Positions 340-61,335 of a DNA stretch of 64,000 nt are shown here, one piece after another. The stretch lies in the IMG/VR virus record IMGVR_UViG_3300025011_000016; one strand, written 5' to 3'. The translations under genes and the position numbers were made by a program. How positions within the stretch are numbered: the first letter of the stretch is position 1; every line of letters begins with the position of its first letter. The DNA is from a virus. Its lineage: Duplodnaviria; Caudoviricetes. The notes below the pieces were generated by a model. The model saw nothing but the letters and a program-made list of their open reading frames with translations. It made no database searches and was not told the DNA's origin.

Positions 340-1134
340 TATTATGAATTTCATTAACGAAGCAGATCGAGAAATCCATGTCTGCATATACAGTGATGTA
401 TATTAAAAAACTATTTTAATTGTCGGGGATCTCCTTAATGCTTTATTTAATAAAGATTGGACAATCCGCAGCCAAGATTCTATTTAATAGAATAAGGTTC
501 AACGACTATCGAAAGCTTTTAATTAAGTTAGTAGAGTAGATTACATATTGATGGTAATCGAAGTGGAGAGCTCCAATATTAAAATTAATTAATTTTAATA
601 TTGGATGAAGATATAGTCTAGTATCCTAATGTAAATTAGGGAAGTTCATAAGAGAACTGCATGTGAGTTATGACATATGTGAATATATCGTATGCCAAAA
701 CCCTAGTCATGGCAAATGCTAAGTTTGTCGGTCGAGTTATAACACATCAGGGATCATTTAATGGATCAGTTACTGAATTCTATAAGAAACTAATGGGATT
801 TGCAACTGAAATACCTGAGAATTTAATCGATGAATTTGAATATATATTTGCTGCACCGAAAACATTAACTAATACTAATCTAACTGATCTTATATCTAAT
901 GCTGAACAAACTGCTACATTTATTGTGAAATCATTAACTGGTGATAATTCATCCCCTAGTGATGATGATAACTTATTAAAAGATTTGTTATTTAATAAAA
1001 TCTCTAGAGAATTCCTACCAATGATTCCATGGAGTACTGCTGATACAATATTAGAGGAGTGTAAGATAGAATTGGAGAAGTTGAAAGCTGAAAAGAAAAT
1101 GACTACTCCTGAAGGTACTGAAGACGTACAATAA
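340..1134 (+). CDS. Portal protein, 3' exons (340..367 and 691..1134)
   Basis: Spliced reading IMNFINEAD|YAKTLVMANAKFVGRVITHQGSF aligns by eye with the T4 gp20-type C-terminal region (ELKFxKFIxxLQxxF). It sits directly beside the tube/sheath genes. Confidence 0.65.
368..690 (+). ncRNA. ORF-less group I intron (portal intron B, 323 nt)
   Basis: P1 exon GCAGAT pairs with IGS GTCTGC (U.G). Core motifs GGACAATCCGCAGCCAAG, GGTTCAACGACTA, GAAGATATAGTC. Omega-G at 690; frame restored. Confidence 0.9.
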
Positions 1135-7241: not shown

Positions 7242-7303
7242 ATTCATAATTAAAAGATATATAAGTAAGTTTAAACTTACTTATATATCTTTTAATTATG
7301 AAT
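7242..7303. terminator. 62-bp perfect palindrome at terminase 3' end
   Basis: ATTCATAATTAAAAGATATATAAGTAAGTTT|AAACTTACTTATATATCTTTTAATTATGAAT, no loop. Confidence 0.75.
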
Positions 7304-19488: not shown

Positions 19489-19580
19489 TATAAAGAATGA
19501 TATAAGTGATTTAAATCACTTATATCATTCTTTATGTATTACATTATTATAATAACTAAACGATAAGGAGTGATAAATTT

Positions 19581-20794: not shown

Positions 20795-20841
20795 AAAATA
20801 AATATATCGGAGTTACTTTAAAGTAACTCCGATATATTTTA

Positions 20842-23854: not shown

Positions 23855-26676
23855 TTATGGTCTGGATTTAAAGAAAGAATCTATATAAGAAGCTTCTCTC
23901 TTTTTAAATGTTAATGGATTAATAAGTTGTCGTCCTAATGCCTGGAAGGATAAACCTATTAAGACAGAAGGATGTTTTTCTAATGCGGATTCAACAGTCA
24001 TTATTTGATACTCAGCTTTTTCACCATACTTACTGAAATCCGGTCTATATAAGATATCCTTACTGTGTCTTAATAGAGGGTGTATCAACAATTCACCATG
24101 AACCGCATCTGAATCAATTTTAGATTCGATTAATAGATCTAACATCTTTTGACATAACTCATCAACAGATCTACATCCAACATGATCACTTCTATTAAGT
24201 AAATACATGATGTTATAAAGAGGACGTGTCAATTCGTTATTCTCAATTTCTAATACGAATATCTTAGAATCATCATCAATTTTAGCAAAGTCAATTTCAT
24301 AAGCGTCTTTATGAGATTTACTCTTATTCATTAACTCAACTATATCTGGAGATATATATAAGTCTTTCTGATTCAATTCCATACATTCTATAATCTCACC
24401 AGATTTTTTATGTTTAACATGGAATATAGTTACAAATGTATTGAAATCAGTATCATCATATTCATTAATACTAATAATATTTTTATTAATAATAACTAAA
24501 GAATAATCATTTAAGTTAATGTCGTCATTAGTTATATTAAGAAGAATTTCATTTGCATTAATAGTGAAAAACTTATAGAAATCAGCATTGAATTCTATCT
24601 TTTCCGAAACTGTTGTTAGTAGGTGTTTAGTTGATAATACTCTCTGAGATACAGGTTCTGTTATTCTTGATCCAGCATATCCACCAATAGAGATACCTTT
24701 ATTGGTATGATATAGTTGCCCATAACAATGCCAACATATTCCATCTTTAGCTGAACAAGTTGCTGGAGATTTAACATAGATAGTTTTACCAACAATATTT
24801 TCCTCATGACCTTCAATGACGTTATAATCTCTAGTATTCTCAAGACGATAATATCTTCCCTGTAATCGTCTTAAATGCTCTTTAGTTTTGATTTCGTATT
24901 GAATTGAATGAATGCTATTACATGTTTTAACAGTAGGACTTAATTTTATTCCTGATGTTAAAAGCATTACTAATCGTGCAAACGTATTTTCATATAGATC
25001 GTAAATCCATACAGTTCTCTAATGAACTTCCCTATAACTATATAGGATACAAGACTATATCACCATCCAATGATGGATGATTCTTATTTCAGTTTAACTA
25101 TAAACTTACGAGCTTTTACTCTAGTCGTTGAACCTTTCTCTTAGTAAGAGTATTGGCTGCGGATCGTCCAATCTTCAATTAAGAAGTTCTAAGGAGTTCC
25201 CCGTCAATTAAAGAAATTTTCTCATTATATATTACTATATAATGCCACCTGTAATTGATGGCCAGATCTACCCATACGTAAGTTGACATTATTCGTTACA
25301 TAATGTAGTCCACAAAGAACTCCCTATATTTCTATAGGATACCAGACTATCTCTTCTCATTTAATTAAATGAGTCTCTCCATTTCGATTTAAGAGTTTTC
25401 ACACCCACTCACTTTGAGCTCTAAATTAGTCGTTGAACCTTTCTCTTATTATAAAGAGACTTGGCTGCGGATTATCCAATCTTAAACATTATTACATTAG
25501 TAGTTTAAGCAGTAAGGAACTTCCCGTCAATTAAAAGAGAAATGGCTAAAAATTAACCAGTTTATTCATAATTAATGATTTTCTTCCACCACGATACTTT
25601 CACATAGGTCGTTAATCCATGCAGTTCTCTTATGAACTTCCCTAATATTTATTAGGATACAAGACTATATCACAATCTTCTATATAGAAGATTCCATTAA
25701 TTTCGATATAACTTTATATCTACGAGTCACGCTCTAGTCGTTGAACCTTATTCTTATATAAGAATCTTGGCTGCGGATTGTCCAATCTTCAATTAGAAGT
25801 TCTAAGGAGTTTCCCGTCAATTAAAATAGTTTTACAACATAAGTCCACCTATGCCGCCCCAAGTTGTTTTAGGGAGTCAATATAGTAATTAGTGATGTTG
25901 GATAATCCCCCTACTATGAAGTTACTATTGATCGGATGGGGGATTGTATTTCCAGAAAGATCCGGCTTCAGCCCCCCACTAATTGCGAACTCTGCTAACT
26001 GTTTATGTTTAATCCCAGCACCAGATTTTAGTATTGGCTGTAGCATATTTCCAACAGGATCATTTTCTAAAATGGCAACTTGCTCATGCATTAGATCATC
26101 TAGTAATGATTCTATTTCCGTAGGTTGAAGTCCGTCTGGAATAACCGTTCGTATGATTTCGTTAAATCTAGGTATACGTTCGCTTACGTCAATAAACGTC
26201 TCAATATTAATTGATAACCCCAATATCATATTAAAGTCAGTTGATATTCTAGATAGATTGTGGATCATATCTGCAATTACTTTATTCATTTTAGTATTAC
26301 TGATAATCTTTCTAAATGGTAAAACTATCTTTCTATCAACATATGATTTGATATAATCTGCCGATATCTTACTACAATCAACTATATAAGATTCATTCAA
26401 TCTATCAATATAACCCAACTTCATCATCGGTGACCAAAACATATAATTTGTTAAGAAATGTCTTAATTGGAGAGTATGAATTTGTTCTCCTTCTTTATCT
26501 GAAAATTTAAAATACACTGGGCATGTTCTCAACTCCTTAACTTCAAACCCTCGTTTTAAATAATCATAGAACAACTCTAGATTAGCTTTGTAGTCCTTCT
26601 TAGTAGCCATTAAGTTTGAGATAATAAAGATCTTATTGGATAGCTCACTGATTATTTTTCCTACATCCGAATCCAA
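23855..26676 (-). CDS. Non-virion RNA polymerase beta' C-terminal subunit, four exons (26676..25871, 25591..25556, 25276..25258, 24982..23855), about 662 aa
   Basis: Spliced bridge helix YYIDSL|GGRKSLIMNKLV|MGRSGH|FARLVML; zinc motif CSAKDGICWHCYG; trigger loop AGSRITEPVSQRVLSTKH; region H IGLSFQALGRQL. Exon sum 1989 nt. Confidence 0.9.
24983..25257 (-). ncRNA. ORF-less group I intron (beta'C intron 3, 275 nt)
   Basis: P1 GCCAT/GTGGC; core motifs present; ends GAAAATACG. Confidence 0.9.
25277..25555 (-). ncRNA. ORF-less group I intron (beta'C intron 2, 279 nt)
   Basis: P1 TGGT/GCCA; core motifs present; ends CAACTTACG. Confidence 0.85.
25592..25870 (-). ncRNA. ORF-less group I intron (beta'C intron 1, 279 nt)
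   Basis: P1 CCCT/GGGG; core motifs present; ends GAAAGTATCG. Confidence 0.85.
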
Positions 26677-29942: not shown

Positions 29943-30039
29943 TTGACGCATTATACGACATAGATGATATTAAGTAAAATTCTAATTTTAAAATAATTAA
30001 TACTCGATAGATTAATCTATCGAGTATTAATTATTCGTT

Positions 30040-36643: not shown

Positions 36644-37028
36644 ATGGGATTTCTTGGTTTTGAATCTAAACGTGAAAAAAATCTTAGGTTACAATTATTA
36701 GATGCTCAAAATGAAATTGGTAGATTAAAAGCCGAGAAGGAAGGTATTCCATTTTTCGGCACAAAATATTCTGATTCTGAGTAAAATTATGTGTTAATAC
36801 GAGACTTATAAATAGTGGCGATAACCAAGCCTGTTAATAATATTTATAAGTTGTAAAAAATCTTTATCGACTAACGTAAATAAAGATTTTCGCCGTTGGT
36901 CGGACGGTTTAAAGAACCTTAAACGGTTAAGTTATTATGGTATCTAACTAATACTACTAACACGACAGGACGATAGAATTAAAATATCCGCCGATGATAT
37001 AAGAAGAAGAGTAAATTCATCTAGATAA
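36644..37028 (+). pseudogene. Small gene interrupted by the IStron relic (5' part 36644..36775, 3' part 36969..37028)
   Basis: MGFLGF...GTKYSD ends in TGAT; joining it to the sequence after ACAG gives an in-frame DDRIKISADDIRRRVNSSR-stop. Confidence 0.45.
36776..36968 (+). mobile_element. Internally deleted IStron relic retaining the omegaRNA-like right end
   Basis: 36860..36970 nearly matches the tnpB 3'/right-end sequence at 7780..7900 and 45540..45651; no tnpB ORF or ribozyme core. Confidence 0.75.
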
Positions 37029-37867: not shown

Positions 37868-39679
37868 ATGGATTATTGTACTGACGGTTGTGGTTATACT
37901 GGTGAGAGTTATAAACGGAGGATTATAAATGGAGAGAACATCTTGAGTAATGAAGTAGTAATGGGCGGTGGTGAATATATTCCACTCGGGTTTCGAGGCA
38001 TACCTGAAGTTAAAAAAAATACAGAGTATCAATGGAATATATTGAGTGAGGACGAGTTTAAACAGCGAATACTCAATGTATTTAGTCAAGTATCATCGGC
38101 TTTAGTGAAAACTCTTGGTCCCTATGGATCTACGACTTTGATCGAACGTTTTGGTGAAATGTGTATCACAAAAGACGGCTGGTCGGTATTGAAGAAGATC
38201 CATTTCACTGAAGAAATTAATAATCATATCTTACAATTGTTATTTAATATAAGCTCGCAAATTATATTAAAAATCGGTGATGGAAGTACATCTTCGATCG
38301 TAGCAGCCGATTCAATTTTCAATAATCTTAGTAAATGTGAGGAATTAAAAACTATTAGATCCAAAGATTTAATGGATGTTGTAAAACATTGTGTTGAGCT
38401 AATAACGGGTATCATCTTAATTAATTCTACTAAGATAGATCCTATTAAAGATCCTGAATTTTCTGATATCTATAAACTTGCTATAATTTCAACGAATGGA
38501 AATAAAGAGGTTTCAGAAATGATACGCTTTATTTATGCCGATACGGGAAATTCCAGTATCGAATTTAATAAATCCAGAACGGGTAAAACTAACTTCGAGA
38601 TAGTTAACGGTTACAAATGCATGATAAATTATATGGACCCGATATTTATTACTAATGATGCGGGTACATGTGATATTACCAAACCGATGATGTTAATGTT
38701 CAATCATAAGATTGAAATGATTCATTATGAGAAAATAATACAACCTCTTATACAAGAGGCTCTTAATTCCGATAGAAGAATTGTTGTGATAGCTCCATAT
38801 TATGATAATCAATTGTTAAATCTAATCCGTCGTAATAGTAATATAGAATTTAGAGCAACTCAAAAATGTACAGTTGTGTATACAAAAGTGGCGTTAATAA
38901 GTGATATGCATAATGAATATTTTAATGATTTCTGTATGATGACCGGAGCTATGATGATTAATGAATCTGCGGCTGAGGATATAATTGAAGGTAAAATTAA
39001 TCTTGAAGAATATGTTGGAGAAGTTGGTAAGATTTCAATCGGCGATAAAACCAGCTTAATAAAAGATTGTTTTAAGATGAATACTGACGAACATCAAAGA
39101 TATATGAATGATGCTGTCTCTAAATATAAACGAGTTGAAGAAACTCACAGTCAACTCGGAGTAGTTAATTCGGAACTATATGATCTCAAACAACGAATTT
39201 CTAAATTACGTGGAAAAATGGGAATAATATCCGTCGGTGGTTATTCCACACTTGAAAAGGATAGTAACTTCGACCTTGTTGAAGATGCGGTTAAATCTTG
39301 TGAATCTGCATATAATTATGGATTCAATATTGGTGGGAATTTGGCGATCCCTATTACTATACAAAAACTATTATGTAATGATTTCGGTATACCTGAACTT
39401 GATAAAATCGTTTTGAGATTATTTGATACTGCTTTCAAAGAAGTATTCTTTAAAGTATTAAAGAATAAATATACTCATGAATCTGATGTATATATTAATA
39501 GTTTAGTAAACGAAGCAATTGATCGGAGACAATGTTGGGATTTGATTAACGAGAAATTCTCCGATGATGTCATCAATTCATGCCATACTGATATTGAGAT
39601 ATTAAAAGCATCAACATCTATAATCTCTTTGCTGATATCTAGTAATCAATATATATCTATTCCACAACCAACTGAATAA
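37868..39679 (+). CDS. groEL: GroEL-like chaperonin
   Basis: TLGPYG, ITKDGWSVLK, IGDGSTS, DLVEDAV motifs; about 55-aa N-terminal extension; late-type promoter 37824..37835; no adjacent groES. Confidence 0.9.
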   Translation: MDYCTDGCGYTGESYKRRIINGENILSNEVVMGGGEYIPLGFRGIPEVKKNTEYQWNILSEDEFKQRILNVFSQVSSALVKTLGPYGSTTLIERFGEMCITKDGWSVLKKIHFTEEINNHILQLLFNISSQIILKIGDGSTSSIVAADSIFNNLSKCEELKTIRSKDLMDVVKHCVELITGIILINSTKIDPIKDPEFSDIYKLAIISTNGNKEVSEMIRFIYADTGNSSIEFNKSRTGKTNFEIVNGYKCMINYMDPIFITNDAGTCDITKPMMLMFNHKIEMIHYEKIIQPLIQEALNSDRRIVVIAPYYDNQLLNLIRRNSNIEFRATQKCTVVYTKVALISDMHNEYFNDFCMMTGAMMINESAAEDIIEGKINLEEYVGEVGKISIGDKTSLIKDCFKMNTDEHQRYMNDAVSKYKRVEETHSQLGVVNSELYDLKQRISKLRGKMGIISVGGYSTLEKDSNFDLVEDAVKSCESAYNYGFNIGGNLAIPITIQKLLCNDFGIPELDKIVLRLFDTAFKEVFFKVLKNKYTHESDVYINSLVNEAIDRRQCWDLINEKFSDDVINSCHTDIEILKASTSIISLLISSNQYISIPQPTE

Positions 39680-40540: not shown

Positions 40541-42630
40541 GTGTTAATGTCAAATGATGATATACGTTCAGTTATATTAGTTGATGAATGGGAACCTGAA
40601 GAAAGGGATGTGATTATCCGACATGATGGAAAACTAGTAATAATACCATTTGACAAAATATTTAACAAGGATAATATAACAAGTTTAAATACTTTTGTTA
40701 TTAAAAAAGAATCATATGTGAAACGTTTGGATCATGTACTGAATAAAGATGGCACTATATCTAAAGGTATATGTCATTATCTAAATTATTTCATTAAGTA
40801 TTATGATTTAGATAATGAGTTATTATTGTCATATATAAAACTCAAATACATTATTGACAATAAGAAAAAGTCTATTAAGTTAATATCTTTCATCAAGATG
40901 TTGTATTCTATTCTGTTTACAGAATCATTAAAGAATAAAATACGACACTTAGTAGAAGACAATTACCATGTTGATGTTACTTCACATAATGGTATTAAAT
41001 ATACCAAATCAATGGAATTTACAAATGAACATGCAAAACTATTAATGATGATCTCAATGAGTATGAAGATAATGGTTCCTATCATATTTCATTTTATCAA
41101 TTCGTCATCTATGTTAAAGGAACCGAATTATATCTTTCAATTTTATGAACGATTGTTCTATATGTATAAATATGATGAAGAGGTTGATATCTATAATAAA
41201 CTATGGGTATCTACATTGGCTAAAGTTAATGTGAATGCTACAAAACATCGAGTTATATGGGACCAGCGAGAAATATTTGGAACAGATCCGTTAATAGAGC
41301 TTGATAAACTATTAAAGGAGAAGATAATTTCTGAAACTATGTTCAAATATACATTTGATAAAAACATTATCAGTTTTAACAGTGTGGTAAAATAATCTAA
41401 TGCCACCTTTTCTTTAACTGACGGGAAGTTCCTTATAGCTTAAACTACTTAATCGTAATAATGTTTAAGATTGGATAATCCGCAGCCAAGATTCTTATAT
41501 AAGAATAAGGTTCAACGACTAGAGTGTGACTCGTAGATCTATAGTTTAGATTGAAATAAGAAAACTCATCTTAATTAAGATGAGAAGATATAGTCTTATA
41601 TCCTATATAACTATAGGGAAGTTCATAAGAGAACTGCATAGATTAACAACCTATGTGAACACGATGCTTAGAAAAACAGCTTGGTTACTTCATACGAGAA
41701 CCTTATGAATTCTCATTAATTGAGTTAAACAATAAAAAAGATCTCGACGGTTTTTTATAGAAGCCGGTTTTCTCTTAACTGACGGGAACTTCCTTATAGC
41801 TTAAACTACTATAAGTAATAATGTTTAAGATTGGACAATCCGCAACCAAGATTCTTAATACAAGAATAAGGTTCAACGACTAGAGTGTGACTCGTAGATT
41901 TATAACTAAATCGAAGTGGAGAAACTTCATAATATTATGAAGAAGATATAGTCTATTATCCTAAAGTAATTTAGGGAAGTTCATAAGAGAACTGTATAGA
42001 GTTATAATCTATATGAATATAAAGTTATCAGGATTAGATAAGCTTGAGATTAACAGTAATAAGATTGATGAATCTTTAATTATATTATCTGGGATTAATA
42101 TAAAGAAAACTATTAAGAGAATTAAGAATAAAATGAAAGTTAAGATCAGTGAAGATGAATTAGAATATTATAAGATCAATCATCACATTAATAAATTTCA
42201 TGTTAGTCTCATATTCTTTTTCTATGCTAGACATTTTGGTAATTATCGAGATCTTAATCTATTAACCCGAAGACAATATTTAACCTTACTAATACTTCTT
42301 AAACGTAAATTACAAATCCAAGGAAATACTTACTTACCCCAGGTTTTAACAAGTAACATTGAAGGTAAATTAAATACTCGTACAATTCAAAATACTAAAT
42401 TCTTAATGAAGATTGAAAATTCTTCTATATATCAATCATTAATGCAAGATAAATTTTCAACTTTAGAAGAATTAAAGAAATCTAATCTAATACTTAATCT
42501 ATTATCAACTATTCTTAATACAACATTTACATGTGTTGATTATGATAATCGAGACAAGTTGGGTACTACATTGGATATTAACTCTGATATGATATCCGAT
42601 GAGTTTCTTAATTTCTTGAATCAATTATAA
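40541..42630 (+). CDS. Candidate nvRNAP promoter-specificity (sigma-like, AR9 gp226/phiKZ gp68-type) subunit, three exons (40541..41388, 41667..41751, 42025..42630), about 512 aa
   Basis: Spliced frame FNSVV|LEKQLGYFIREPYEFSLIELNNKKDLDG|LSGLDKLE; exon sum 1539 nt. Size and position two genes from the chaperonin match my recollection of AR9 g228/g226. Confidence 0.55.
41389..41666 (+). ncRNA. ORF-less group I intron (278 nt)
   Basis: P1 GTGGT/GCCAC; P10 TCTAA pairs with exon TTAGA, fixing omega-G at 41666; core motifs present. Confidence 0.9.
41752..42024 (+). ncRNA. ORF-less group I intron (273 nt)
   Basis: P1 CGGT/GCCG; core motifs present; ends GAATATAAAG; frame restored. Confidence 0.9.
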
Positions 42631-42713: not shown

Positions 42714-43742
42714 ATGAATAATCTTGAGATGAAAAACCACTTAAGAAATAAATTATTACAAATTCAATCTGCCAAACAAAATGGCCCTAAACAAATCTTA
42801 TTAAGATGTCCAGTTTGTTTAGATTCACAAAAAGATCTTTCACATGGGCATTTTTCTGTTAAGATAGATATGTTCAATGATGAACCTGTAATATTTCATT
42901 GTTTTCGATGTGATATTAGTGGTATTCTCACACCAACTATGTTGCGTTCATTTAAGATTAATGATTTACAATTAAACAGTGGATTATTATCTTATAATAA
43001 AGCATCTTTAGGTACTAATAACAAATCTTTTACTTTATATAATAACAATCTAAATTTAAGAGTTCCAACACCTAGTGATAATGAAAGAACTTCATTAAAA
43101 CAAAAATATATTGAAGGAAGACTGGGTGTAAAATTTACCATAGAAGAATTGGTTAATCTAAAGGTTGTGTTTAATTTAGGAGAATTCTTAAAATTTAATG
43201 GTATTGATACTTTAACTACAAATAAATATAAAGCTAGATTATTACATAATGACTATGTGGGGTTTTTAACTGCGAGAAACGAGTTTATAAATTTCAGAGA
43301 TATTACTGGAAGAAATGAGAGATATGATAAATATAACGTATATAATAATCTGGATAACACTCGAAAGTTTTATACTATACCAAACTCAATAGATCTTTTG
43401 ACGCGTGATAAAATTACTATTAATATAGCTGAAGGTGTTTTTGATATCTTAGGTATATATCATCATTTATACGAAAAGGAACATAAGAATATTATCTATA
43501 CTAGTGTAAATGGTTGTGGTTTTGTATCTGTAATAAAATATTTTATTCAAATGGGAATCTTTGGTAATGTGGATGTAAATATTTATTCTGATAAAGATAA
43601 ATCACCTATATTTTATAAGAAGTTATATTATGAATTAAAAGACTGGATACATACAATTAATCTATTCTATAATGAAATAGGTAAGGATTATGGTGTTACT
43701 AAAGATAAAATAAAGATTATCAAACGAAAAATAGAAAGGTGA
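42714..43742 (+). CDS. DNA primase
   Basis: Zinc-binding CPVC...HCFRC; TOPRIM IAEGVFD and YSDKD. Confidence 0.85.
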   Translation: MNNLEMKNHLRNKLLQIQSAKQNGPKQILLRCPVCLDSQKDLSHGHFSVKIDMFNDEPVIFHCFRCDISGILTPTMLRSFKINDLQLNSGLLSYNKASLGTNNKSFTLYNNNLNLRVPTPSDNERTSLKQKYIEGRLGVKFTIEELVNLKVVFNLGEFLKFNGIDTLTTNKYKARLLHNDYVGFLTARNEFINFRDITGRNERYDKYNVYNNLDNTRKFYTIPNSIDLLTRDKITINIAEGVFDILGIYHHLYEKEHKNIIYTSVNGCGFVSVIKYFIQMGIFGNVDVNIYSDKDKSPIFYKKLYYELKDWIHTINLFYNEIGKDYGVTKDKIKIIKRKIER

Positions 43743-44059
43743 ATTATTATATGAATAAACGTATAACTGAGTTAACACGATATTTTATAAAAGGCTCATT
43801 GGTTGGAGAAATTGTCCCATCTAAAATAGATTCGTTTCTAAATGAATTGAATACCTTAATTATAAAATACTGCGGTGAAAAGTATTATCTTAGTAGTGAA
43901 GTGGAGGCTGTTGACTCTGAGACATATAAGAGTAAAACTGAGGAAATAAATGAAAAAGAAAGTGAAGGATTAGTCACATGTCCATATACCTCAGAATGGT
44001 GTGATAAGCTAAAGGATAAAGAACTTAAGTCAACTTTCATACCTCCTAAAACGACATAA
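43739..44059 (+). CDS. Hypothetical protein
   Basis: Overlaps primase stop (GTGA coupling). Confidence 0.5.
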   Translation: MNYYMNKRITELTRYFIKGSLVGEIVPSKIDSFLNELNTLIIKYCGEKYYLSSEVEAVDSETYKSKTEEINEKESEGLVTCPYTSEWCDKLKDKELKSTFIPPKTT

Positions 44060-44241
44060 AAAATGAAGATGGATAAACGATCATTTAAGATTGTTTATCC
44101 ATCTTCTTATATAAAAAAGAGGAGGACTGTGGGAAAAGGTAGTGAGCAATCTACCCTTTCTTAATTATCTGTTTAGTAAATTATTTACCAATATATAACA
44201 AAAGACATATAATTATTTTTTTTAATTATATGTCTTTTGTT

Positions 44242-45649
44242 ATATAGTCTGTGCTTTAAGGAAACTTAGAGAAATAACTTAATCAGTAGTCTTAATAATT
44301 CATTCCTAATAAGATATTATTATACTTATAACAAATAATATAAGAAAGGGGGTGAAGATAAATGATTAAGACTTTTAAAACGAGAATACGACCAACTAAA
44401 GAACAAGAGATATATTTAAACAAATGCTTTGGATATAGAAGATTCATATACAATAATGCTTTAGAATATTTTAATACCCTTTTAGAGCATAATGGTAATA
44501 TTATTGATAAAACATTAAAGAAGTTCTTTGATAAGTTTGATTATATTACTCATATATACTCTAAGAAAGAAAAGGAACCGGGATTTGAATGGACTCAAGA
44601 GTATAATAAGTCAATAAAGAATGAAGTGGCTAGTGATTTTAATATAGCTATTAATAAGTTCTTTAAAGATATTAAAGACAAGAAACGATGTAAATTACAT
44701 TTTAAAAGAAAGATTCATGGAAATGGTTCTTTTAGAATATACAAGACGAATAAAGGTAATGTTAAAATTATTGATAAGAAGTTATTCTCTTTTATTATTA
44801 ATAGAGAATACGGTCACATGCCATTGAAAACTTTTGAAGATATAAGCTTTTTATATCACTATGATATAAAAACAATGACTATTAGTATGAAGAATTTTAA
44901 ATATTATGTATCATTCACTTATGAAATAGATATCCCAAAGCATAAACATAAGAAAAATATGGTAGGTATAGATTTAGGAATACATAATCCAGTAGTTTGT
45001 TTTGATGGAAACGATATCATAAATCCTAAATTTCCGAAGGGAATTATTAAGAAACTAGAGAAGAAAGTTGATAAACTCTCAGTAATAGTTTCTAAAAAGA
45101 AGTATGATAAACGTAACCCATCAAAGAACTATATAAAAGCGAGAACCAAACTTAATGATATTCACGTCAAAATAGTGAATATCAGAATGGATTATATTCA
45201 GAAGGTATCTACATTCTTAGCTAAGACTTATAGAAACGTAATAGTTGATGAGTTTAGTTTTAAAGAGTTATTAACAGAGTCCGATGGTAATACGCGTATA
45301 AATAGAGGTATACACAGAGTTGGTGACTTTATGTTTACACAGGTGTTAAAATATAAATGTCACTTTTATGGTAGTGAATATATTTTAGCATTACCTAATA
45401 GTACCATTACATGCTCTGAATGTAATCATAAACTTAAAACTAAGTTAAAGTTATCTCAAAGAATCTTTAATTGTCCAATATGCGGACATATAGATGGTAG
45501 GGATAACAATGCTTCTATTAATATTTATAAGTCATTTAAAGGATCTTTATTAACTAACGTAAATAGAGATTTCGCCGTTGGTCGGACGGTTTAAAGAACC
45601 TTAACGGTTAAGTTATTGTGGTATCTAACAAGTACTACTAACACGACAG
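44242..45649 (+). mobile_element. 5'-truncated IStron copy: intron S/P9 remnant + tnpB + right end
   Basis: ATATAGTCTGTGCTTTAAGGAAACTTAGAG matches the terminase IStron just after its P7; upstream ribozyme core absent; ends ACACGACAG. Confidence 0.8.
44362..45594 (+). CDS. tnpB: TnpB, second intact copy
   Basis: About 80-85% identical by eye to 7826..9064; D-E-D catalytic residues intact. Confidence 0.95.
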   Translation: MIKTFKTRIRPTKEQEIYLNKCFGYRRFIYNNALEYFNTLLEHNGNIIDKTLKKFFDKFDYITHIYSKKEKEPGFEWTQEYNKSIKNEVASDFNIAINKFFKDIKDKKRCKLHFKRKIHGNGSFRIYKTNKGNVKIIDKKLFSFIINREYGHMPLKTFEDISFLYHYDIKTMTISMKNFKYYVSFTYEIDIPKHKHKKNMVGIDLGIHNPVVCFDGNDIINPKFPKGIIKKLEKKVDKLSVIVSKKKYDKRNPSKNYIKARTKLNDIHVKIVNIRMDYIQKVSTFLAKTYRNVIVDEFSFKELLTESDGNTRINRGIHRVGDFMFTQVLKYKCHFYGSEYILALPNSTITCSECNHKLKTKLKLSQRIFNCPICGHIDGRDNNASINIYKSFKGSLLTNVNRDFAVGRTV

Positions 45650-46078
45650 GATGGAGATATTGTATTTATTTAATATACCAGTTAATGTATTTACTTGCAA
45701 ATCTGTATTCAATTCAGGAAAATTCTCTAAAATCTCAAGTTTGAGTAAATCAAGATAAAGGGACGGCATAGTATGGCACAACTCCTTCCTATTTCTAGTA
45801 AGAGTATACCATACTAATGCCGTCAAATGCAACCCATATTGCTTGGATCAATAGATAAATATTTATTTTTATCGTATATATTATTAAAAATCTCTTCTTT
45901 ATAAATGTTTAAAATTAATTCATTCATCATATCATTACTTCCTTTCGTTATCAAATAATTAATAATTTGTTATCACGAAAGTAACTAATAATTCACGATT
46001 TGACAATTTATTAATTATGTCGTATAATGCGTCAACTACGACATTAAATCTACCAAAGATGGATCTGAATTTACAGAG

Positions 46079-46261
46079 TTAGTCACCAATTCCTGCAGGT
46101 ATTCCGCAACCAAACCATATTATTTTGGGACAATGCTCACATGATAAACAAATTCCTCGTCGTGAATATTCACCCTGTTTCGGACATTTCACATCTTTTT
46201 TGGCATAACAATATTCTTGCATTTTTTTATTGCTCAAAATATTTTTCACCCACCTTCCCAT
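46079..46261 (-). CDS. Small Cys-rich protein
   Basis: GGAAGG RBS; six Cys including CLSCEHC. Confidence 0.5.
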   Translation of the reverse strand: MGRWVKNILSNKKMQEYCYAKKDVKCPKQGEYSRRGICLSCEHCPKIIWFGCGIPAGIGD

Positions 46262-46282
46262 AATAAAAGAGCCTTTCGGCTC

Positions 46283-46531
46283 TTATAATCTGCACACACT
46301 TAATACATTTTCTAATCCTAATATCTCAATTGCTTTAGTTAAGACAATTTCAGATTTATCATTATCGTGATAAGTGCATCTACCATTTTTATATGCACCA
46401 CAACAACTGCAATTTGAACCACTTAAAAAACATGAGCTTAAACGAAATGTAAACGGGTTTTCCTTTTTACTATCTAGTTTTTTTAAATACTCTGTTAGGG
46501 ATTCGATAGAACTCATATTATTACCTCCCAA
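46283..46531 (-). CDS. Small Cys-rich protein
   Basis: GGAGG RBS before MSSIE; CFLSGSNCSCC...C cluster. Confidence 0.5.
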   Translation of the reverse strand: MGGNNMSSIESLTEYLKKLDSKKENPFTFRLSSCFLSGSNCSCCGAYKNGRCTYHDNDKSEIVLTKAIEILGLENVLSVCRL

Positions 46532-46596
46532 TATTAGAATAAACTCTAGATAATTTTGTTTTATCTAGAGTTTAAATTGATCATCTTTGTCTGTGA

Positions 46597-48777
46597 CTAC
46601 AATATAGATTGGGTTTTCATCCATGCTGAAATCAAGCCTGCAAAGTGCTGTTTACAGGAATCGGACATTGGATGTATATCGTCGTACATCCATATTTGCC
46701 GAAGTGATAAGTCATGCACCCACACACCATCAACTTGACGAGGGTTTTCGTTTAGATTTTCAAGATTTGAACCCACATGATTCGACCCGTTATAACCTGT
46801 ATCGTGCCATACATGAGACACATCCCAATATCCAGTGGTTGTAATTTGTGTCCTTGCCCTTACGTCACTTTCTTCCCATAGCTTATAAAGTGGAAATCCA
46901 AAGTAATTAGATGCCGTTTCCTCTGCTTCCCAAACATGTCCTAACTGATATCTACTGTCGTCATTGTCGTAATGCCCAACCATTAGTATTTTTATTCGTG
47001 GTTTACGTAAACGTATTTGTTGTACCAGATAAATAAACGCACCCACAGCATAATGCCTATCATTTGAAGTTGCTGGGACGCTAGTATAGGTTAAAGCAGA
47101 AGCGTCTCCTGTGGCATCATTCCTAAAATGCTCGAAAACAATTGCATCCGAAGTAGCAATGTATGACTCAATACGTCCAAGCATAGCACCTGTGATTTTC
47201 CCAGTTATGCTTAAATCACCTTCGATATCCATGGAATCATCCCAACAGTAAGAATATGCCAACCATCGCATACTATTATATGTTGCACCATTATTCGCAT
47301 AAACGTCAATTGGTTTTAAAGCCGGAATCCCTATAACAGGTGTTACAGGGTCTACACTAACATATGTATCTGCAAGCATATCCCCATAGCCAATAACACT
47401 TGTTACTTCTCCTTCAGTATAACCCTTTGCTATAAGATAGGCTTTACGATCCGTTGTTTTCCAGCAATCAAACAACCGCCTACGTTCTTCCTGTGTCATT
47501 GATAATGTACGCAGTACATTTGCCATCCATAGACCAGTTATTCCAAGGTCATCACCCAACTCAGAGGTATCATAAACAGAACCACCTATACGCATCATTG
47601 ACGAACCGACAGCTTTATTAGTCACGGTTGCTCCAATTGCCGTACCGACTAGGATAGGGTGCCCTTGTTCAGGAATTGATGTTCCTAACCACAAAATATT
47701 TTTACCGATGTATTGTCCATTCCCTTGTAGTGATAGTTCTTGCGAAAGTGCTTGCACTTCTCCATATGCTGCAAGTTTTCTTTTCTCAGAATAATAATTT
47801 ACAGTAAGACTTGACGTTAAATTTGTAACATTACTACCGTCAATCGCCTTAATAATAACTGCGACATATAGGTAATCACTATCAAAAGCGTATTCCGTAC
47901 ACCAATCTTGTATAAATTCAAAAGGCTGTCCATACCCATCGTTATTAGCATTCACGACAAGCTGAAAACCAGTTGCCGCCTCAAATCCGCTTAGATTATA
48001 CGTGGGAAGCACAATAAATGCCCTCGTATTGATAATAAACTTATTACCAGTAGCATCAATATTACCAGTTATCAGATTAGCATAAGCACTTATGACATCC
48101 CCACCATACCTAACAGTAGTTTCAACCCTTGACAATATAACTGTGTTATGACTTATAACACTTAAAATGCTATCTAAATCAATCCCAGTTATATCCGCAT
48201 CACTATTATCTTTTACTATAATGTATAAATATTTATGGCTTAACGGGTTTATATACACAGCGTTCGACGCAATCCATCCACCTATTGTTGTAATAGCAGT
48301 TCCCTTTATATCACACCCTTTTATAAGAAACTGATAACCTAGCTTGCAGGACAGGTTAGCGACGAATTCGGACTCAAGTATCACCCTAGCCCTTATGTTT
48401 GACACAACTTCTGAACCATCAGCATCGTTAAACGTGCCAATTGTTAAATCAGCATAAGATTCGGTTGCTGTGCCAGACAACTTATCGCCAACTAAATTAT
48501 CTATTTTGCCAATCTGCCCTCTTATTGAGGTTCCTATATTTGCATAGGTTGCTCCGTCTGCACCAACTCTACCGTCAATTAACTCAGCATCTCCAGTAGT
48601 GCTTCCTGCCGAAAGTGTTGCAAGATTTGTTATTCTTGCGCTTTCTAAATCCAAGTCTACTTGACGTGCTTTTGTTGCTAACTCCTGCACATTCTCTGCC
48701 TTATACGTCATAAGATCTTTCTTAATACCAGCACTTGGATCATACCTAGATTGCGACATAACTGACTCCCTCCCCAC
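46597..48777 (-). CDS. Tail-associated protein with C-terminal SGNH/GDSL hydrolase domain
   Basis: Fibre-type AELIDGRVGADG..Y..IG..IR motif; SGNH blocks WLGTSI, NKAVGSS, EHFRND, DDIHP. Confidence 0.7.
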   Translation of the reverse strand: MGRESVMSQSRYDPSAGIKKDLMTYKAENVQELATKARQVDLDLESARITNLATLSAGSTTGDAELIDGRVGADGATYANIGTSIRGQIGKIDNLVGDKLSGTATESYADLTIGTFNDADGSEVVSNIRARVILESEFVANLSCKLGYQFLIKGCDIKGTAITTIGGWIASNAVYINPLSHKYLYIIVKDNSDADITGIDLDSILSVISHNTVILSRVETTVRYGGDVISAYANLITGNIDATGNKFIINTRAFIVLPTYNLSGFEAATGFQLVVNANNDGYGQPFEFIQDWCTEYAFDSDYLYVAVIIKAIDGSNVTNLTSSLTVNYYSEKRKLAAYGEVQALSQELSLQGNGQYIGKNILWLGTSIPEQGHPILVGTAIGATVTNKAVGSSMMRIGGSVYDTSELGDDLGITGLWMANVLRTLSMTQEERRRLFDCWKTTDRKAYLIAKGYTEGEVTSVIGYGDMLADTYVSVDPVTPVIGIPALKPIDVYANNGATYNSMRWLAYSYCWDDSMDIEGDLSITGKITGAMLGRIESYIATSDAIVFEHFRNDATGDASALTYTSVPATSNDRHYAVGAFIYLVQQIRLRKPRIKILMVGHYDNDDSRYQLGHVWEAEETASNYFGFPLYKLWEESDVRARTQITTTGYWDVSHVWHDTGYNGSNHVGSNLENLNENPRQVDGVWVHDLSLRQIWMYDDIHPMSDSCKQHFAGLISAWMKTQSIL

Positions 48778-49186
48778 TTATAGATGAATCAATATAGATT
48801 TGATTAGCATTGGCTACAGCAAATGTGAATGCTTCCTTGGCACCAAGCTTCACCCCATAAACAGCCAATGAAACATTTACTCCACCGGCGAAGACACTTC
48901 CTGTATTAGTATCCAAACCGATAACAGTTACCTCCCGACATGGTATATTAGGTAATTGAGTTCTGGTTCCAGCAGTAGTGACTAATTTTAATGCCCCAGT
49001 TAATGACGTACTACCACATAATGCTCTATATATACTAGATAACCATCCTCTGGCTCCAGTACCCCCAGTTGCTTGTGATACACCAGTAGCATCAGTTCCG
49101 TCTAATATAGCTGCCGCAGAATGCGTTCCATCAGGATTTTCTACAGCTTTAAATGGTACACCACCAATAAGAATTATTTTATCCAT
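48746..49186 (-). CDS. Small tail/structural protein of temperate-phage type
   Basis: Gly/Ala/Thr-rich; GC higher than flanks; co-transcribed with the SGNH spike. Confidence 0.5.
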   Translation of the reverse strand: MDKIILIGGVPFKAVENPDGTHSAAAILDGTDATGVSQATGGTGARGWLSSIYRALCGSTSLTGALKLVTTAGTRTQLPNIPCREVTVIGLDTNTGSVFAGGVNVSLAVYGVKLGAKEAFTFAVANANQIYIDSSISGEGVSYVAI

Positions 49187-49337
49187 TTTAACTTCAACTC
49201 CTTTGTATTATGTTATTTTAATATTATGTTTAATTCATTACCACATGAAGATTAATTATACTATTTTATAAGTATTGGTTATATATCTTTACCTCTAACA
49301 ATTAACTAATAATAACTAAAATAGGTGGTGTATATTT

Positions 49338-50528
49338 ATGGGACATTTAATTGATGAAAAAAGGTTTATAAACAATAACATCTTTAAATATGAAGAGAGG
49401 ATGAATTCTCAATACTCAAGATTTCTAGATAAAACCCCTACATTTATAACGTATTACAATATAAATAATATTACATCTATAACAGATACAGGTTTTTTAA
49501 ATGTGGAGCGTATTATTGATTATAATTCTCCTATACGATTTAAGCGAATTGATGATCTTCCAATTTATGGACTTGATACAATTCTGCTAGATTTAACAGA
49601 TGACGAAATAGGCCTAGATACTTCATATGATGGTGAAGTAGTTATATTACCTAATACCATACGGCCACTTCCTAATGATTGTTTTACGATAACATATCTA
49701 GATAGTAATTATTTATTTATGGTAACAACTGTTAATTATGATACCATTAAGAGTAATAACTATTATAAGATTTCATTTGTTATTAGATCGTTAACACCCG
49801 ATATTAAAAATCAATTATTATTACAGGTTGAAGAAGTATATAACTGTGTTCTAACTAATATAGGAACGCAGGAGAAATGTATAATTCGATCTGATATATA
49901 CGAGAAAATTATTCTTATGAATGAAATGTATAAAGAAATCTGTGAAAAATATAAAATATTGTTCTATAATATAAGATATAACAGTTTTATGTATATTGAT
50001 GAAATCAGCCATATAAAATACTATGATAAATATCTAACATTCTTTATTAATAAACATCAGTTATTTAATGAACGATATGAATATGATACATTGTTTTTAG
50101 TAAATGAGGATGACAATCATAAATTTCCTCTTGAATACGATAAGTCATTTTATCACATTTTAGAAAAAAATAAAAAGAGTATGATTCCAGAGCATATTAA
50201 TTATGCAACTGGTAGTGTAGCTAATACATCATCTATATTCAGGTACTATAATGACGTATATGTAAAGAGTATATATTTCTCAGATATTGGTTTGCCATAT
50301 ATTGATGATATACTTATTAATAGCATAATCAATAGTATACCATCAGATAAGGTTAGTTATAAAACAATTATTGATTATTTTAATAATAATGTGAATGTTA
50401 TCGATACATTTGATATGGGACCATTGGCTGAGAACGATTATATTGAGTACGATTTAAATTCATTCATTCTAATTCCTATGCTATTATTTATTCTCCGTGT
50501 GTACTATAATAAATTCATGGCGAATTAG
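49338..50528 (+). CDS. Virion structural protein (possible head-completion/neck)
   Basis: Late promoter 49297..49308; YDGEVVILPNTIRPLPND motif; family call weak. Confidence 0.5.
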   Translation: MGHLIDEKRFINNNIFKYEERMNSQYSRFLDKTPTFITYYNINNITSITDTGFLNVERIIDYNSPIRFKRIDDLPIYGLDTILLDLTDDEIGLDTSYDGEVVILPNTIRPLPNDCFTITYLDSNYLFMVTTVNYDTIKSNNYYKISFVIRSLTPDIKNQLLLQVEEVYNCVLTNIGTQEKCIIRSDIYEKIILMNEMYKEICEKYKILFYNIRYNSFMYIDEISHIKYYDKYLTFFINKHQLFNERYEYDTLFLVNEDDNHKFPLEYDKSFYHILEKNKKSMIPEHINYATGSVANTSSIFRYYNDVYVKSIYFSDIGLPYIDDILINSIINSIPSDKVSYKTIIDYFNNNVNVIDTFDMGPLAENDYIEYDLNSFILIPMLLFILRVYYNKFMAN

Positions 50529-51212: not shown

Positions 51213-52020
51213 TACTAAAGAAACCCCATATGTGTAATCTCATACACATATGGGGTTTCTTTTATGTTTAAGCCAATAATGGTCATTTAAATTGTTAATA
51301 GATATTCTCATCTTAATGAAAATATGTATTAAATACCTAAAACACTTTTAACCATTTTTATTTGAGTAATATTAAAGTTTACTCAAATCCTCCGATAGTA
51401 TCGCCTTCTAAAATAATATCTTCGCCTTCATCCATAGAGGGCTACATATATTATAAGTAGATACGCGGGCAAACACACCATCAGTTTTCTATATCAAACT
51501 AAGAAACTAACATATTTTGTACATGATATAGAGCGTCAACAACTATGTTATATTTCCTTCTACACGTTCAGTAATTATGTCTTAAATATCAAATATTTAT
51601 CTACGTCTAAACAACTTTATATTACAATCTCTAAACTATATACCCTTCCTACTCAGTAAATTGAATAAATGATATTTATACGATTAGTATAGAGGTTAGA
51701 AACTCCACATATTAATTATAATATATGCAGCTTTTCACCACCTTCCCTAGTAAGAATTGTATAATACTTTAATTAAGTATCGTTACAAACTTAAGAGGGG
51801 CCTCACCACCTTTCTATATATAATATAGTAGGTTAGTGATAAGGGTTAATAATAAGGCTTTGCTATATAATCACCTTCATTTCTGTTAACTATTATTGTG
51901 GTGACACATTATAACCATCCTTTCTTATTTTATAATACTTATATTAGTATAATATATATTTTAATTATCTTAAAATACGATAATGAGATAGAGCTATGTT
52001 TTACACATAGCTCTATCTCA

Positions 52021-55000
52021 TTAATCATTTTCGAAACGTGTCATCATATATAGTGTATGAACACCCTCATTGGTTGTCTTTCTCATATTACTACCAGCGA
52101 TATTTAGAATATGAGCTTTAGATGTCATAATTTCAATAGCTTCTTTATTAGCTTCTTGACTAAATAAACCCTTTACTGTAACCTGATCCAAAATATTCAT
52201 ATAGATATTTAATCCATACAGTTCTCTTATGAACTTCCCTATATTAATATAGGATATTAGACTATCTCTTCAATAGAATAAATCTATTGTTTTCCCATTT
52301 CGATATATAACTATATCTACGAATTACTTCTAGTCGTTGAACCTTTCTCTTATATAAGAGACTTGGCTGCGGATTGTCCAATCTTCCATTAAAGAAGCTA
52401 TAAGGAGTTTCCCGACAGTTAAGGAAAATACGGCAATACAATGACCGTCGTACATGTAAACTCCATATTTTCATATGGCATGGACTATATCTTCACCGTA
52501 TAATAATAAATTATTAATTAGGTGTCCTGCACTTCCCAACTAACCCACAAATTAGTCAGTACACTACTAACTACTATATAATTATATGATAGTAATTTTC
52601 GTTAGTCTCTACATCTTCTCTAATTAATTTACATATTTTCACATATTGTAATTTTAACATGGGGGTTTTTATTTTGGGTGTATCATTTAGTTTAGACTCT
52701 ATTTTAATCAATATTTCATTACGGGAATTTTTATCACAATAGAATACAAAATATCCTTGAATAATACGTCCAAATCGAACCGCATGAGTTACAGAACTTT
52801 TATTACTATCTATTGAATCAGCAAATGACTTCGCTCCTTGGAATATATGAAATAACCCATCTTTAAATGCAATTATAGGTTTAGATTTATCTCGTTTAGT
52901 TTGTTCAGAATGTCTAAATAATTTTGTACTTTCACTCATCTTATATTTAGACTCACTATTCATAGTTCCACCGACCCCACCTGTTTTCTTATTATATCCA
53001 ATATTAGGATCATTTGCTTTTAAAGTTGATATCCAATATACCTCTTTTTCGTTCATTTCATTTTTAGAGGTGCATGTGTCTATTATACTGCAATCAAAAT
53101 TATTAAATCCATATTCATTAACTATTTTTATAATATGATATAAATTCGATTTCCTATTAAGCTTTTTATACTTATAATCCTTAAGTCGTGAATGTAGATT
53201 TATTGTCTGACCAATATAAATTTTACCATCTATATTATTTCTCAACATATATATTACACCAAAATGTTTTTTCGATTCAATTATTAGATCATCATTATAC
53301 ATAATAACCCCCCTTATTATATATAAGTTAGTATAAAAGTATTTTTTTACAATATATGAATTTCGTAAATCAATTAAAGCTTGACACGGTATTTCCAGCT
53401 ATCCATATTTCAGGACCTTAGGTTCTCTTACGAAGCTTATTCGTCAATGCTTATTTCACTTCTACCGTTAGCATGAGTATTGTGATACCCATACACCGCC
53501 TGTTAAGCGTTCACAGGATTTTTAACTAAGCTATTTCTAGCAAAGGGAGACAACAACTTTTATCTCCGTTTAAACCAGGTAGATATAAATTTGACATACT
53601 CACAGTATCTGCAAATAGAGTGGATATTTCTTCTTTAGGTAAACTAAGATCGATCCTAGGATAATTCGTATAGACTCTATTTCCAATAAACATCGGTATA
53701 GTTTGGTGGGTACTTAGGACTGATATTTTGTTAGGAAAGCTACTGAAATAATCTGAAATAGGATATCTCGTAACGAATACCATTTTATCTGATGTAACAT
53801 CAACTGCCGCTTGATATAAAATATCACACCAAGTTGCCTTCCTTTGTACTAAGGGAGATTCAGTTTCAGGAACCCCTGGTTTATAATCTTTTCCTATAAA
53901 TCGCATATATAATTTCTTCCCATCAGATCTAGGTTCCTCGACGGGAAGTTCAATTGGTGTAAATCTATCGGATACACTAAATATGAATCTATCAATTTGT
54001 TTTTTAAGATATTCTTCGTTGAAATATAATGAGGGATCTTTTAATTTCACATATCCCATGGAACCGTCCGGATTTCTTACAGGATACTTATTACCAACCT
54101 TCTCTAATTCTCTATGGAAGAAATTTTTAACCCAATTTATTATAAATGGTGTAAATAATGAACATGTTTGTGCAAGAGGAATACCAACATGATAAAAATC
54201 TATTTGCATCTCAGATGGTTTATTTGCTTTGAATATAGGTGCAGAAATTCGTTTATTCATATAGAATATAACTCTATACAGTTCTCTCATGAACTTCCCT
54301 AATTTTCATTAGGATACTAGACTATATCTTCAGGAAATTAAGAATTCCTGAACTCCCATTTCAATACAATAATGTATCTAACTCACGGTAAATTAATATA
54401 ACCATATTTCCGTGTGATAGTCGTTGAACCTTATTCTATTAGATAGAATCTTGGCTGCGGATTGTCCAAACTTAAACATTGTTACTTTAAGTGGTTTAAG
54501 TTCTAAGGAGATTCCCGACAATTAAGGAGCTACGTGCAGTAAATCCACACTCCTCGATCCGAAATCAACCGATTTACCCATTAAATTTTTTCTAATTAAT
54601 CCATTCTTCTTTTCTATTCTACCTTTGAGCAAATCATAAATTTCTACTAAGACTTCCTGAACCTTAGCCCTAGTTCCATTAAGTACAAAATCAAAATTAT
54701 TGGAGTTCCTCAACACAGTTGCGAATCTTAATAATTTAGCGTACTTATCATTGATCTCATGATGACTAATCTTACCCTGTGTTGCTGATTGTAAATTAAC
54801 ATCACGATAGAATGCTGGCACTACAATCCAGTACTCAGTAAATAAAGTATCTTTATCATACGATCTCAGCAAGTCAATTCTTTCACTACGTATAGAACTG
54901 GCATTCTTTTCAAAGTTTATTTTTTCCCAATTTTTATATAAGAATTCTAATCCAGTCTCACCAGATTCCTCAGCTTCAACCAATTGTCCATTTTTATCTA

Positions 55001-59630: not shown

Positions 59631-59759
59631 TGATTTATACTAAAGAAAAAGTAGATGCTATTGTTAGACAAATAACTCCCGATTTATAAAAAAAAATAAA
59701 TATTAGAGAATGAATAATATGGAATTAATTCCATATTATTCATTCTCTTAAGTAAAGGT

Positions 59760-61221: not shown

Positions 61222-61335
61222 TTTAACTCCTCCTAATTATTTATTCCAATCATATAATATATAGTTGAAACGTAACTTTAATTAAGTGTTATTACATTAA
61301 TAACACTTAATTAAAGTGGAGGTGAAATATTATTA

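Follow-up and report, generated by a model that had tools for sequence, protein, structure and literature searches.

A 5'-truncated IStron in a groundwater jumbo phage that keeps an intact TnpB nuclease gene and its guide-RNA end

The 64,000-nt stretch analyzed here (IMG/VR record IMGVR_UViG_3300025011_000016, called the window throughout) is part of the genome of an uncultured groundwater jumbo phage of ~250 kb. At 44242-45649 on its plus strand lies an element (W3, here the studied copy) that sequence comparison confirms as a 5'-truncated member of a tnpA-less, group-A-type IStron family. The core of the group I ribozyme is gone, and an intact tnpB gene, the conserved, predicted omegaRNA end and a private guide are still in place. 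We propose, with moderate confidence, that the studied copy is an IStron derivative reduced to a self-contained TnpB-omegaRNA unit with a selfish homing/retention role. The initial annotation of this region, made by eye, had described a splicing-dead IStron derivative with an intact-looking nuclease gene, and our analysis bears this description out.

A ribozyme-less member of an IStron family

The extent of the studied copy was defined in an alignment (A1) of six elements, namely the two tnpB-bearing copies of the window, a relic at ~36776-36968 and three public copies. Homology to full IStron copies starts at 44242 (ATATAGTCTG...) and ends with ACACGACAG at 45641-45649, an end that is the same in all elements examined and is followed here by GATGGAGATATTG. 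The same alignment, together with that of Rfam, agrees with the initial annotation, which had the copy begin at the intron P9 right behind a long hairpin, with the core lost, and end in the shared terminal sequence followed by a third guide. Over 44242-45649 the nucleotide identity to five full copies amounts to 85-89%, and the closest relative is a copy with a full core on public contig L141. The features of the studied copy and its relatives are collected in Table 1.

At least five tnpB copies are present in the phage: in the terminase gene (W1), in the NAD-ligase gene, in a Pif1-like helicase gene, in a split gene on L141, and in the studied copy. A full ribozyme core is readable upstream of tnpB in the four others (a run at the Rfam gathering score missed those on L001, L002 and L005). 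Insertion behind a TTGAT-like pentanucleotide and a ...CAG end are characteristic of group A IStrons (PMC4227781). Correspondingly, the left boundaries of the full copies follow ATGAT, TAGAT, TTGAT and TAGAT, and that of the relic follows CTGAT. The L141 copy, for example, follows TAGAT and continues into ATAAGGTAG after its end. Helix P1 covaries at exon position -4, TGAT going with GTCA and AGAT with GTCT (9420-9437, L002:5625-5650, L141:4630-4650), and the P1 loop between the paired exon and the intron guide sequence is wholly different among copies. The TTGAT-like boundaries, the P1 covariation and the CAG end are, as read from the alignments, the signature of a group A IStron. A single genome thus holds a decay series of four full copies, a ribozyme-less copy and a relic without tnpB.

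Two short contigs switch between copies of the family. L001 (3952 nt) follows the helicase copy for ~300 nt and then the L141 copy with its flank, and L142 (2897 nt) follows the studied locus to ~45480 and then the right end and exon 2 of the helicase copy. In both, the switch probably arose during assembly, the right end being a repeat; conceivably they are real recombinants.

Table 1. Features of the studied copy, family copies and related sites (window coordinates unless a contig is named)
Feature	Position	Strand	Basis or remark
Perfect AT-rich hairpin, 24-bp stem, 7-nt loop	44192-44246		Inverted repeat; terminator-like
Group I ribozyme remnant, last 30 nt (J8/7 tail, P7', P9)	44242-44271	+	A1, Rfam alignment
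P9 hairpin with GAAA loop	44254-44271	+	Rfam alignment of terminase copy
Variable spacer from P9 to tnpB expression signals	44272-44329	+	56% of columns vary
Invariant block: AACA-N7-TA, then GGGGGTG ribosome-binding site	44330-44361	+	Same in the six elements read
tnpB, 410 aa	44362-45594	+	HTH_OrfB_IS605, OrfB_IS605 and Cas12f1-like_TNB domains; RuvC residues; two CxxC pairs
Right end and predicted omegaRNA scaffold (5' limit approximate), overlapping tnpB 3' end	45480-45649	+	Conservation
Flank-derived guide GATGGAGATATTGTATTTAT, unique to the studied copy	45650-45669	+	Sequence
43-codon open reading frame (MPSLYL...), 12 nt into element end, unsupported as gene	45638-45769	-	Reading of open frames
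Terminase-gene IStron, full	7780-9427		
NAD-ligase-gene copy, full	L002		
Pif1-like helicase-gene copy (P0253), full			Relative on L005
L141 copy, full (TnpB P0248)	L141:4630-6290		~36 kb beyond window end on the same scaffold; splits a gene into 442 aa + 458 aa
Orphan omegaRNA relic	36776-36968		Right end and private guide; tnpB also lost
13/16 matches to the guide	604-619		+	No TAM
	10276-10291	-	No TAM
	25052-25067	-	No TAM
	L002: 988, 1707, 10808		No TAM
Examples of reading frames preceded by AACA-N6-TA	1184-2044, 2073-4472, 15819-17483, 37868-39679, 49338-50528		

Loss of the ribozyme core and the 5' junction

According to the Rfam alignment of the terminase copy, the bases left in the studied copy correspond to the J8/7 tail, P7' and P9, and the model ends at the equivalent of 44271. 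Helices P1-P8 are missing, and a permissive Rfam search of 43700-46100 gave no group I intron match (RF00028) at E<=10. The 5' junction reads ...TTTTGTTATAT|AGTC and contains no GAT, hence no TTGAT-like pentanucleotide. With no motif resembling the target-adjacent motif (TAM) at this position, the original junction must have been lost together with the core. The intron remnant begins with the last five nucleotides of the upstream hairpin (ATATA), which places the rearrangement joint in a 5-nt microhomology. The origin of the copy is therefore most simply a microhomology-mediated deletion from the old 5' flank to J8/7, ending in ATATA. A precise deletion from the 5' junction itself to J8/7 was considered and dropped, because the true left end of the family follows NWGAT and ATATA belongs to the hairpin palindrome.

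The hairpin at the joint is not peculiar to the element. Long perfect AT-rich hairpins are frequent at gene ends across the window, with palindromes or hairpins of 19-31 bp at 1135-1178, 7242-7303, 19490-19535, 20800-20839, 29992-30035, 51217-51262, 59705-59748 and 61275-61317. Such perfect gene-end hairpins are likely bidirectional terminators and a general feature of the phage. Since they are this common, the hairpin at 44192-44246 is best read as an ordinary terminator between convergent groups, separating a rightward group with the primase gene from a leftward group that ends near 45650.

An intact ribozyme might have been expected upstream in a corrected assembly if the truncation were an artefact, with a full intron collapsed or mis-joined. 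We consider this barely credible. Short contigs of this family are sometimes chimeric, as L001 and L142 illustrate by switching copy inside tnpB or the right end. The truncated junction, however, reads the same in three assemblies from two samples (the window, L006 and L007). A 37-nt stretch over the hairpin-remnant joint is the same in a 117.6-kb scaffold, which matches the window at 100% identity over 4 kb, and in an independent 3.4-kb contig from the other sample, and 15 contigs carry the studied tnpB in this context. As the joint recurs in two further public assemblies, it is no assembly slip.

The TnpB protein and selection on its gene

The tnpB open reading frame (ORF) is complete, and its product matches PF12323, PF01385 and PF07282, all above the cut-offs. 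Residues D204, D296/E297 and D380 align with the RuvC triad of ISDra2 TnpB (D191, E278 and D361), and both CxxC pairs are kept. Identity to the TnpB of the terminase copy is 84% at the amino acid level and 88% at the nucleotide level. The divergence between these two copies, estimated earlier by eye as roughly 15-20%, is thus 12-16% when measured.

Purifying selection is evident on the lineage. Pairwise ratios of non-synonymous to synonymous substitution rates (dN/dS) against four sister copies range from 0.11 to 0.28, with 0.23 for the terminase copy and 0.11 for the L141 copy, the closest one at 88.5% nucleotide identity. When changes were polarized by this sister and three outgroups, nine synonymous and five non-synonymous changes were private to the studied tnpB (231 synonymous and 999 non-synonymous sites). 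The dN/dS of the private branch is then ~0.13 (P=2e-4 against neutrality), and a neutral phase can cover at most ~20% of this branch (P=0.03 at 20%). Judged by these substitutions, it does hold that tnpB has not gone through a long neutral phase. The comparison of dN/dS suggested in the initial annotation accordingly yields purifying selection on the lineage as a whole, with values far below 1.

The initial annotation had gone one step further and had taken a nuclease kept intact despite divergence as a sign of retained function. This step is unjustified, since the divergence may predate the deletion and have accumulated in a full IStron, and the deletion is undatable. The ribozyme remnant shows none of 30 positions privately changed, which at the third-position rate of 0.062 has P ~0.15 and is not significant. 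An intact tnpB can reflect either a recent deletion or selection continuing after it; the data fit both. An attempt to measure selection after the truncation from population variants failed, the only variant contig being the chimera L142.

A possible alternative, to which we give clearly less weight than to the proposed homing unit, is accordingly that the studied copy is a recent dead-end relic: a very recent deletion left a copy without relevant activity, its tnpB being intact for want of decay time, and the copy cannot spread because the left end and the TAM are gone. Consistent with this, the functionless ribozyme remnant has no private change, all public contigs with this tnpB share sequence and context, a more eroded family member exists in the same genome at 36776-36968, and the selection data leave room for the short neutral phase given above. 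On the other hand, the probability of an unchanged remnant is too high to demonstrate recency, and the promoter-like block, ribosome-binding site, ORF, omegaRNA and terminal CAG are all intact. In addition, recombinational homing depends on homology in the flanks rather than on the left end, and a copy is not immobilized by losing the latter alone.

Exchange between copies is also visible in the family. Over 100 nt near the tnpB 3' end (A1 columns 1480-1580), identity between the terminase and ligase copies reaches 99%, compared with 87% elsewhere, which is evidence that IStrons of this genome undergo gene conversion. In the studied copy no exchange tract was found outside the right end.

The guide-RNA end, the guide and its possible targets

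The last ~130 nt of the element are strongly conserved: 14% of the columns vary, compared with 41% of third codon positions, and the only less variable part is the 30-nt ribozyme remnant (6%). The predicted fold of the right end has several hairpins; one pair changes from G-C to A-U on both sides in the ligase copy, with little variation overall. Of the two private changes of the studied copy in this region, one falls in a loop and the other turns a U-A into a U-G pair.

In every copy, the guide is the DNA adjoining the right end. The initial annotation had correctly observed that GA follows ACAG in all three window copies, and had suggested a downstream target preference or the true element end. 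These suggestions do not stand: three further family copies continue with TT, TA and AT, so that the shared GA is a coincidence.

No target of the guide was found in the window by eye in the initial annotation. A scan of the window and related loci allowing up to three mismatches agrees, giving only J8/7-like intron cores without a TAM. The guide matches 13 of 16 bases of the P8/J8-7 core GATGAAGATATAGTCT, which is common to many ORF-less introns and has no adjacent TAM at these sites (Table 1). In this AT-rich setting the resemblance is within chance, as many or more matches being obtained in 11 of 100 shuffles. Wider searches gave a similar picture. The 19-nt guide has 61 exact matches in JGI metagenomes, only one of which is the same locus, and this is occupied. 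A scan of GTDB genomes returned eight scattered matches in unrelated taxa, and one of IMG/VR 60 matches, none with further similarity to the locus.

These searches bear on the idea, raised in the initial annotation, of a reprogrammed guide with an anti-host or anti-competitor role, according to which the copy has been kept since its guide targets a host or competing phage away from its own insertion site. The intact nuclease and omegaRNA and the unique guide would fit such a weapon. Yet the guide is simply the DNA beside the right end, as in every other copy, the searches with 16-20 nt gave the occupied locus and scattered matches in unrelated taxa without further similarity, and the window matches at three mismatches have no TAM. 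With no target found in the window, JGI, GTDB or IMG/VR, we regard this explanation as highly improbable.

The flank also bears on how the copy arose. As an alternative to deletion in place, a partial copy reaching from P7' to the right end, with ~11 nt of the 3' exon of another copy, may have been captured at a break beside the hairpin by means of ATAT microhomology on either side. ATAT is present at both junctions (GTTATAT|AGTC and GGAGATAT|TGTA), the 5' junction has no TAM-like GAT, and the first 11 nt of the guide resemble GATGAAGATAT, which precedes AGTCT in many phage introns. Against such a capture, no 3' exon of the five known copies begins with GATGGAGATAT, the 13/16 resemblance is at the chance level given above, and a deletion in situ requires one event only. 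We therefore consider the capture an unlikely origin.

As a side observation, the guide of the terminase IStron (GAGTTTACTTGAACGA) matches 52448-52463 on the minus strand with two mismatches in 16. This site, which falls on the 5' edge of a further group I intron (Rfam 52237-52453), is not preceded by any TTGAT-like motif; the match may be due to chance (probability about 0.03-0.1).

Expression signals

Three hairpins lie between the element and the upstream gene, which makes read-through from that gene unlikely. The phage uses the AR9-type late promoter, AACA-N6-TA (PMC5312081). Of the 60 ORFs of the window, 17 have this motif 25-60 nt ahead of the start codon, where 1.4 would be expected (examples in Table 1). 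Every tnpB copy is preceded by the same unvarying block, which has AACA-N7-TA at -32/-33 and then a strong ribosome-binding site. A scan for sigma-70 promoters stayed at chance level. An early-type core, TATATATTAT, is found 11 times in the window, once just downstream of the element at 45875-45884 (+).

As read from these motifs, the promoter-like block could allow expression without the lost intron. Provided that it is active, the tnpB/omegaRNA transcript starts downstream of P9 in every copy, and loss of the core would then cost the studied copy no nuclease production. It would also end the competition between splicing and guide formation known from IStrons.

Genomic setting

Proteins identical to those of the window are encoded on public contigs of up to ~248-272 kb (ENA ANAN16-1 scaffolds, PRJNA268031). 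Among the genes of the phage are those of a multisubunit RNA polymerase, which are split, and of a chaperonin, and the window contains seven group I introns at the Rfam gathering score. Megablast revealed no near relative of 43000-47000 in the phage collection, and scans of IMG/VR with the TnpB peptides and the omegaRNA core gave no match.

The element lies in a block (43739-49338) that is missing in the two nearest sampled relatives (L008 and L010, with a primase only 66% identical), where the primase gene directly adjoins the gene of a 396-aa structural (virion) protein. The block consists of a 106-aa ORF, the TnpB element, small leftward ORFs and genes for proteins of 726 aa and 146 aa. Neither Pfam nor PADLOC gave a match for the proteins beside the element in this island, and the 726-aa protein has a single weak PHROG match to a family without an assigned function. 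The position in a lineage-specific, non-core block between convergent transcription units implies that no host gene requires splicing of the element. Since L008 and L010 lack the whole block, they are uninformative on the insertion site.

Two further observations concern the surroundings. A 21-nt indel at 46176-46196 distinguishes the window from JGI contig L050; apart from it, the two agree fully over 1 kb. Upstream, an RNA-polymerase-related gene is split into 284 aa and 205 aa by a 617-nt gap (41396-42012) and is contiguous in relatives (504 aa in L008); no intron was detected in the gap at the Rfam gathering score.

The initial annotation also had the element apparently cutting into a small minus-strand gene. 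An ORF does overlap the element end by 12 nt, and its status as a gene finds no support: it is not called in the public annotation, has no Pfam match, and among 1.8 billion representatives it matched only repeat proteins. Its ATG falls in the stem of a hairpin at 45762-45824 (15-bp stem and 33-nt loop containing GGAAGGAG, minus strand). A weak DicF match over this hairpin is below threshold (26.5 bits, E=0.005; gathering score 48).

Comparison with known systems

Among known systems, the closest are group A (IS200/IS605-type) IStrons such as CdISt1/CdiIStron of Clostridioides difficile (Tourasse 2014, PMC4227781; Zedaveinyte et al., bioRxiv 10.1101/2023.11.20.567912). The sister copies share with them the 5' ribozyme, a TTGAT-like site forming P1, tnpB after P9 and the CAG end. 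The studied copy shares tnpB, the spacer, the P9 remnant and the right end, but is without P1-P8 and the TAM junction and therefore without splicing. The whole phage family differs in that it has no tnpA and resides in a jumbo phage instead of a Firmicute chromosome, and the phage TnpB is only ~30% identical to any named TnpB.

Decay forms of IStrons are known in which ORF A is lost or truncated, ORF B is truncated, or both are lost, as in BcISt1 of emetic B. cereus (PMC4227781). The studied copy is likewise a non-autonomous derivative, yet in the opposite direction: the described forms keep the ribozyme and lose ORFs, whereas the studied copy retains ORF B without the ribozyme. Partial copies with the IS component only were reported in the same IStron survey at scaffold ends and were taken as assembly fragments (PMC4227781).

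With the tnpB-only IS200/IS605 elements (ISDra2 TnpB, PDB 8EXA/8H1J; Meers et al., PMC10055086) the studied copy has in common the domain order and the RuvC and zinc-finger motifs. A predicted omegaRNA over the 3' end of the gene, a guide from the flank and, in the family, a TTGAT-type TAM are shared with ISDra2-type elements as well. It is from this tnpB-only system that the homing/retention model is borrowed (PMC10055086). The studied TnpB itself resembles that of ISDra2 only distantly (phmmer E 8e-24), and the element has neither a left end nor a transposase. Compared to the relic at 36776-36968, which belongs to the same family and genome, has a right end with a private guide and has also lost tnpB, the studied copy represents an intermediate decay stage in which the nuclease is still present.

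Discussion

In this study, we propose that the studied copy has been reduced to a self-contained unit for homing and retention. In IStrons the TAM also acts as the partner of the 5' splice site; splicing works against omegaRNA formation, and of these two functions it is splicing that is lost more easily (bioRxiv 10.1101/2023.11.20.567912; for the latter two points also PMC13521648). Loss of the P1-P8 core would have removed the original 5' junction as well, including the TTGAT-like TAM that served as 5' splice site. The remaining unit would comprise the promoter-like block, the ribosome-binding site, intact tnpB, the omegaRNA scaffold and a guide that derives from the 3' flank, with tnpB and omegaRNA presumably transcribed late from the internal block. 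Because this RNA is unable to splice, every transcript would keep its guide attached. The ribonucleoprotein would then cut element-free alleles (TAM + GATGGAGATATTG...) in co-infecting relatives, and recombinational repair would copy the element in, amounting to selfish homing or retention as for IS605/IS607 TnpB. The studied TnpB could also load the near-identical scaffolds of other copies and the orphan omegaRNA at 36776-36968. From their sequences, the nuclease and guide module look functional, and homing/retention appears the best-supported mechanism.

Several points weigh against this proposal. The RuvC-II acidic position aligns as D296 instead of the usual E, although E297 comes next; DE is found in all copies of the family. 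The spacing in the tnpB block is N7, one base off the consensus N6, so that the promoter-like block is a lead and no finding. Selection on tnpB may all predate the loss of the ribozyme, since decay of the remnant has too little power to date the deletion, and gene conversion could help to keep ORFs open without selection on each copy. Finally, neither an empty nor a full-length allele of the site was found in public collections, nor a target that would point to homing at this locus.

A stronger version of the proposal holds that the copy is a selected, autonomously late-expressed unit and, being relieved of the conflict between splicing and guide, the most efficient source of nuclease among the copies, which drives its locus and the accessory block into relatives and loads orphan and sister omegaRNAs in trans. 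We consider this version doubtful. If true, it would constitute an RNA-guided marker-exclusion system in phage-phage competition.

In summary, the studied copy shows a known element in an ordinary state of decay and leaves the knowledge of this element class unchanged. It provides a natural phage example of an outcome known from the laboratory, in which splicing is lost and the nuclease and guide module stay intact. With an internal late promoter in all copies, if active, nuclease and guide would be produced independently of the host gene that the element interrupts. The graded decay series of one family within one genome is useful for asking which IStron function selection keeps.

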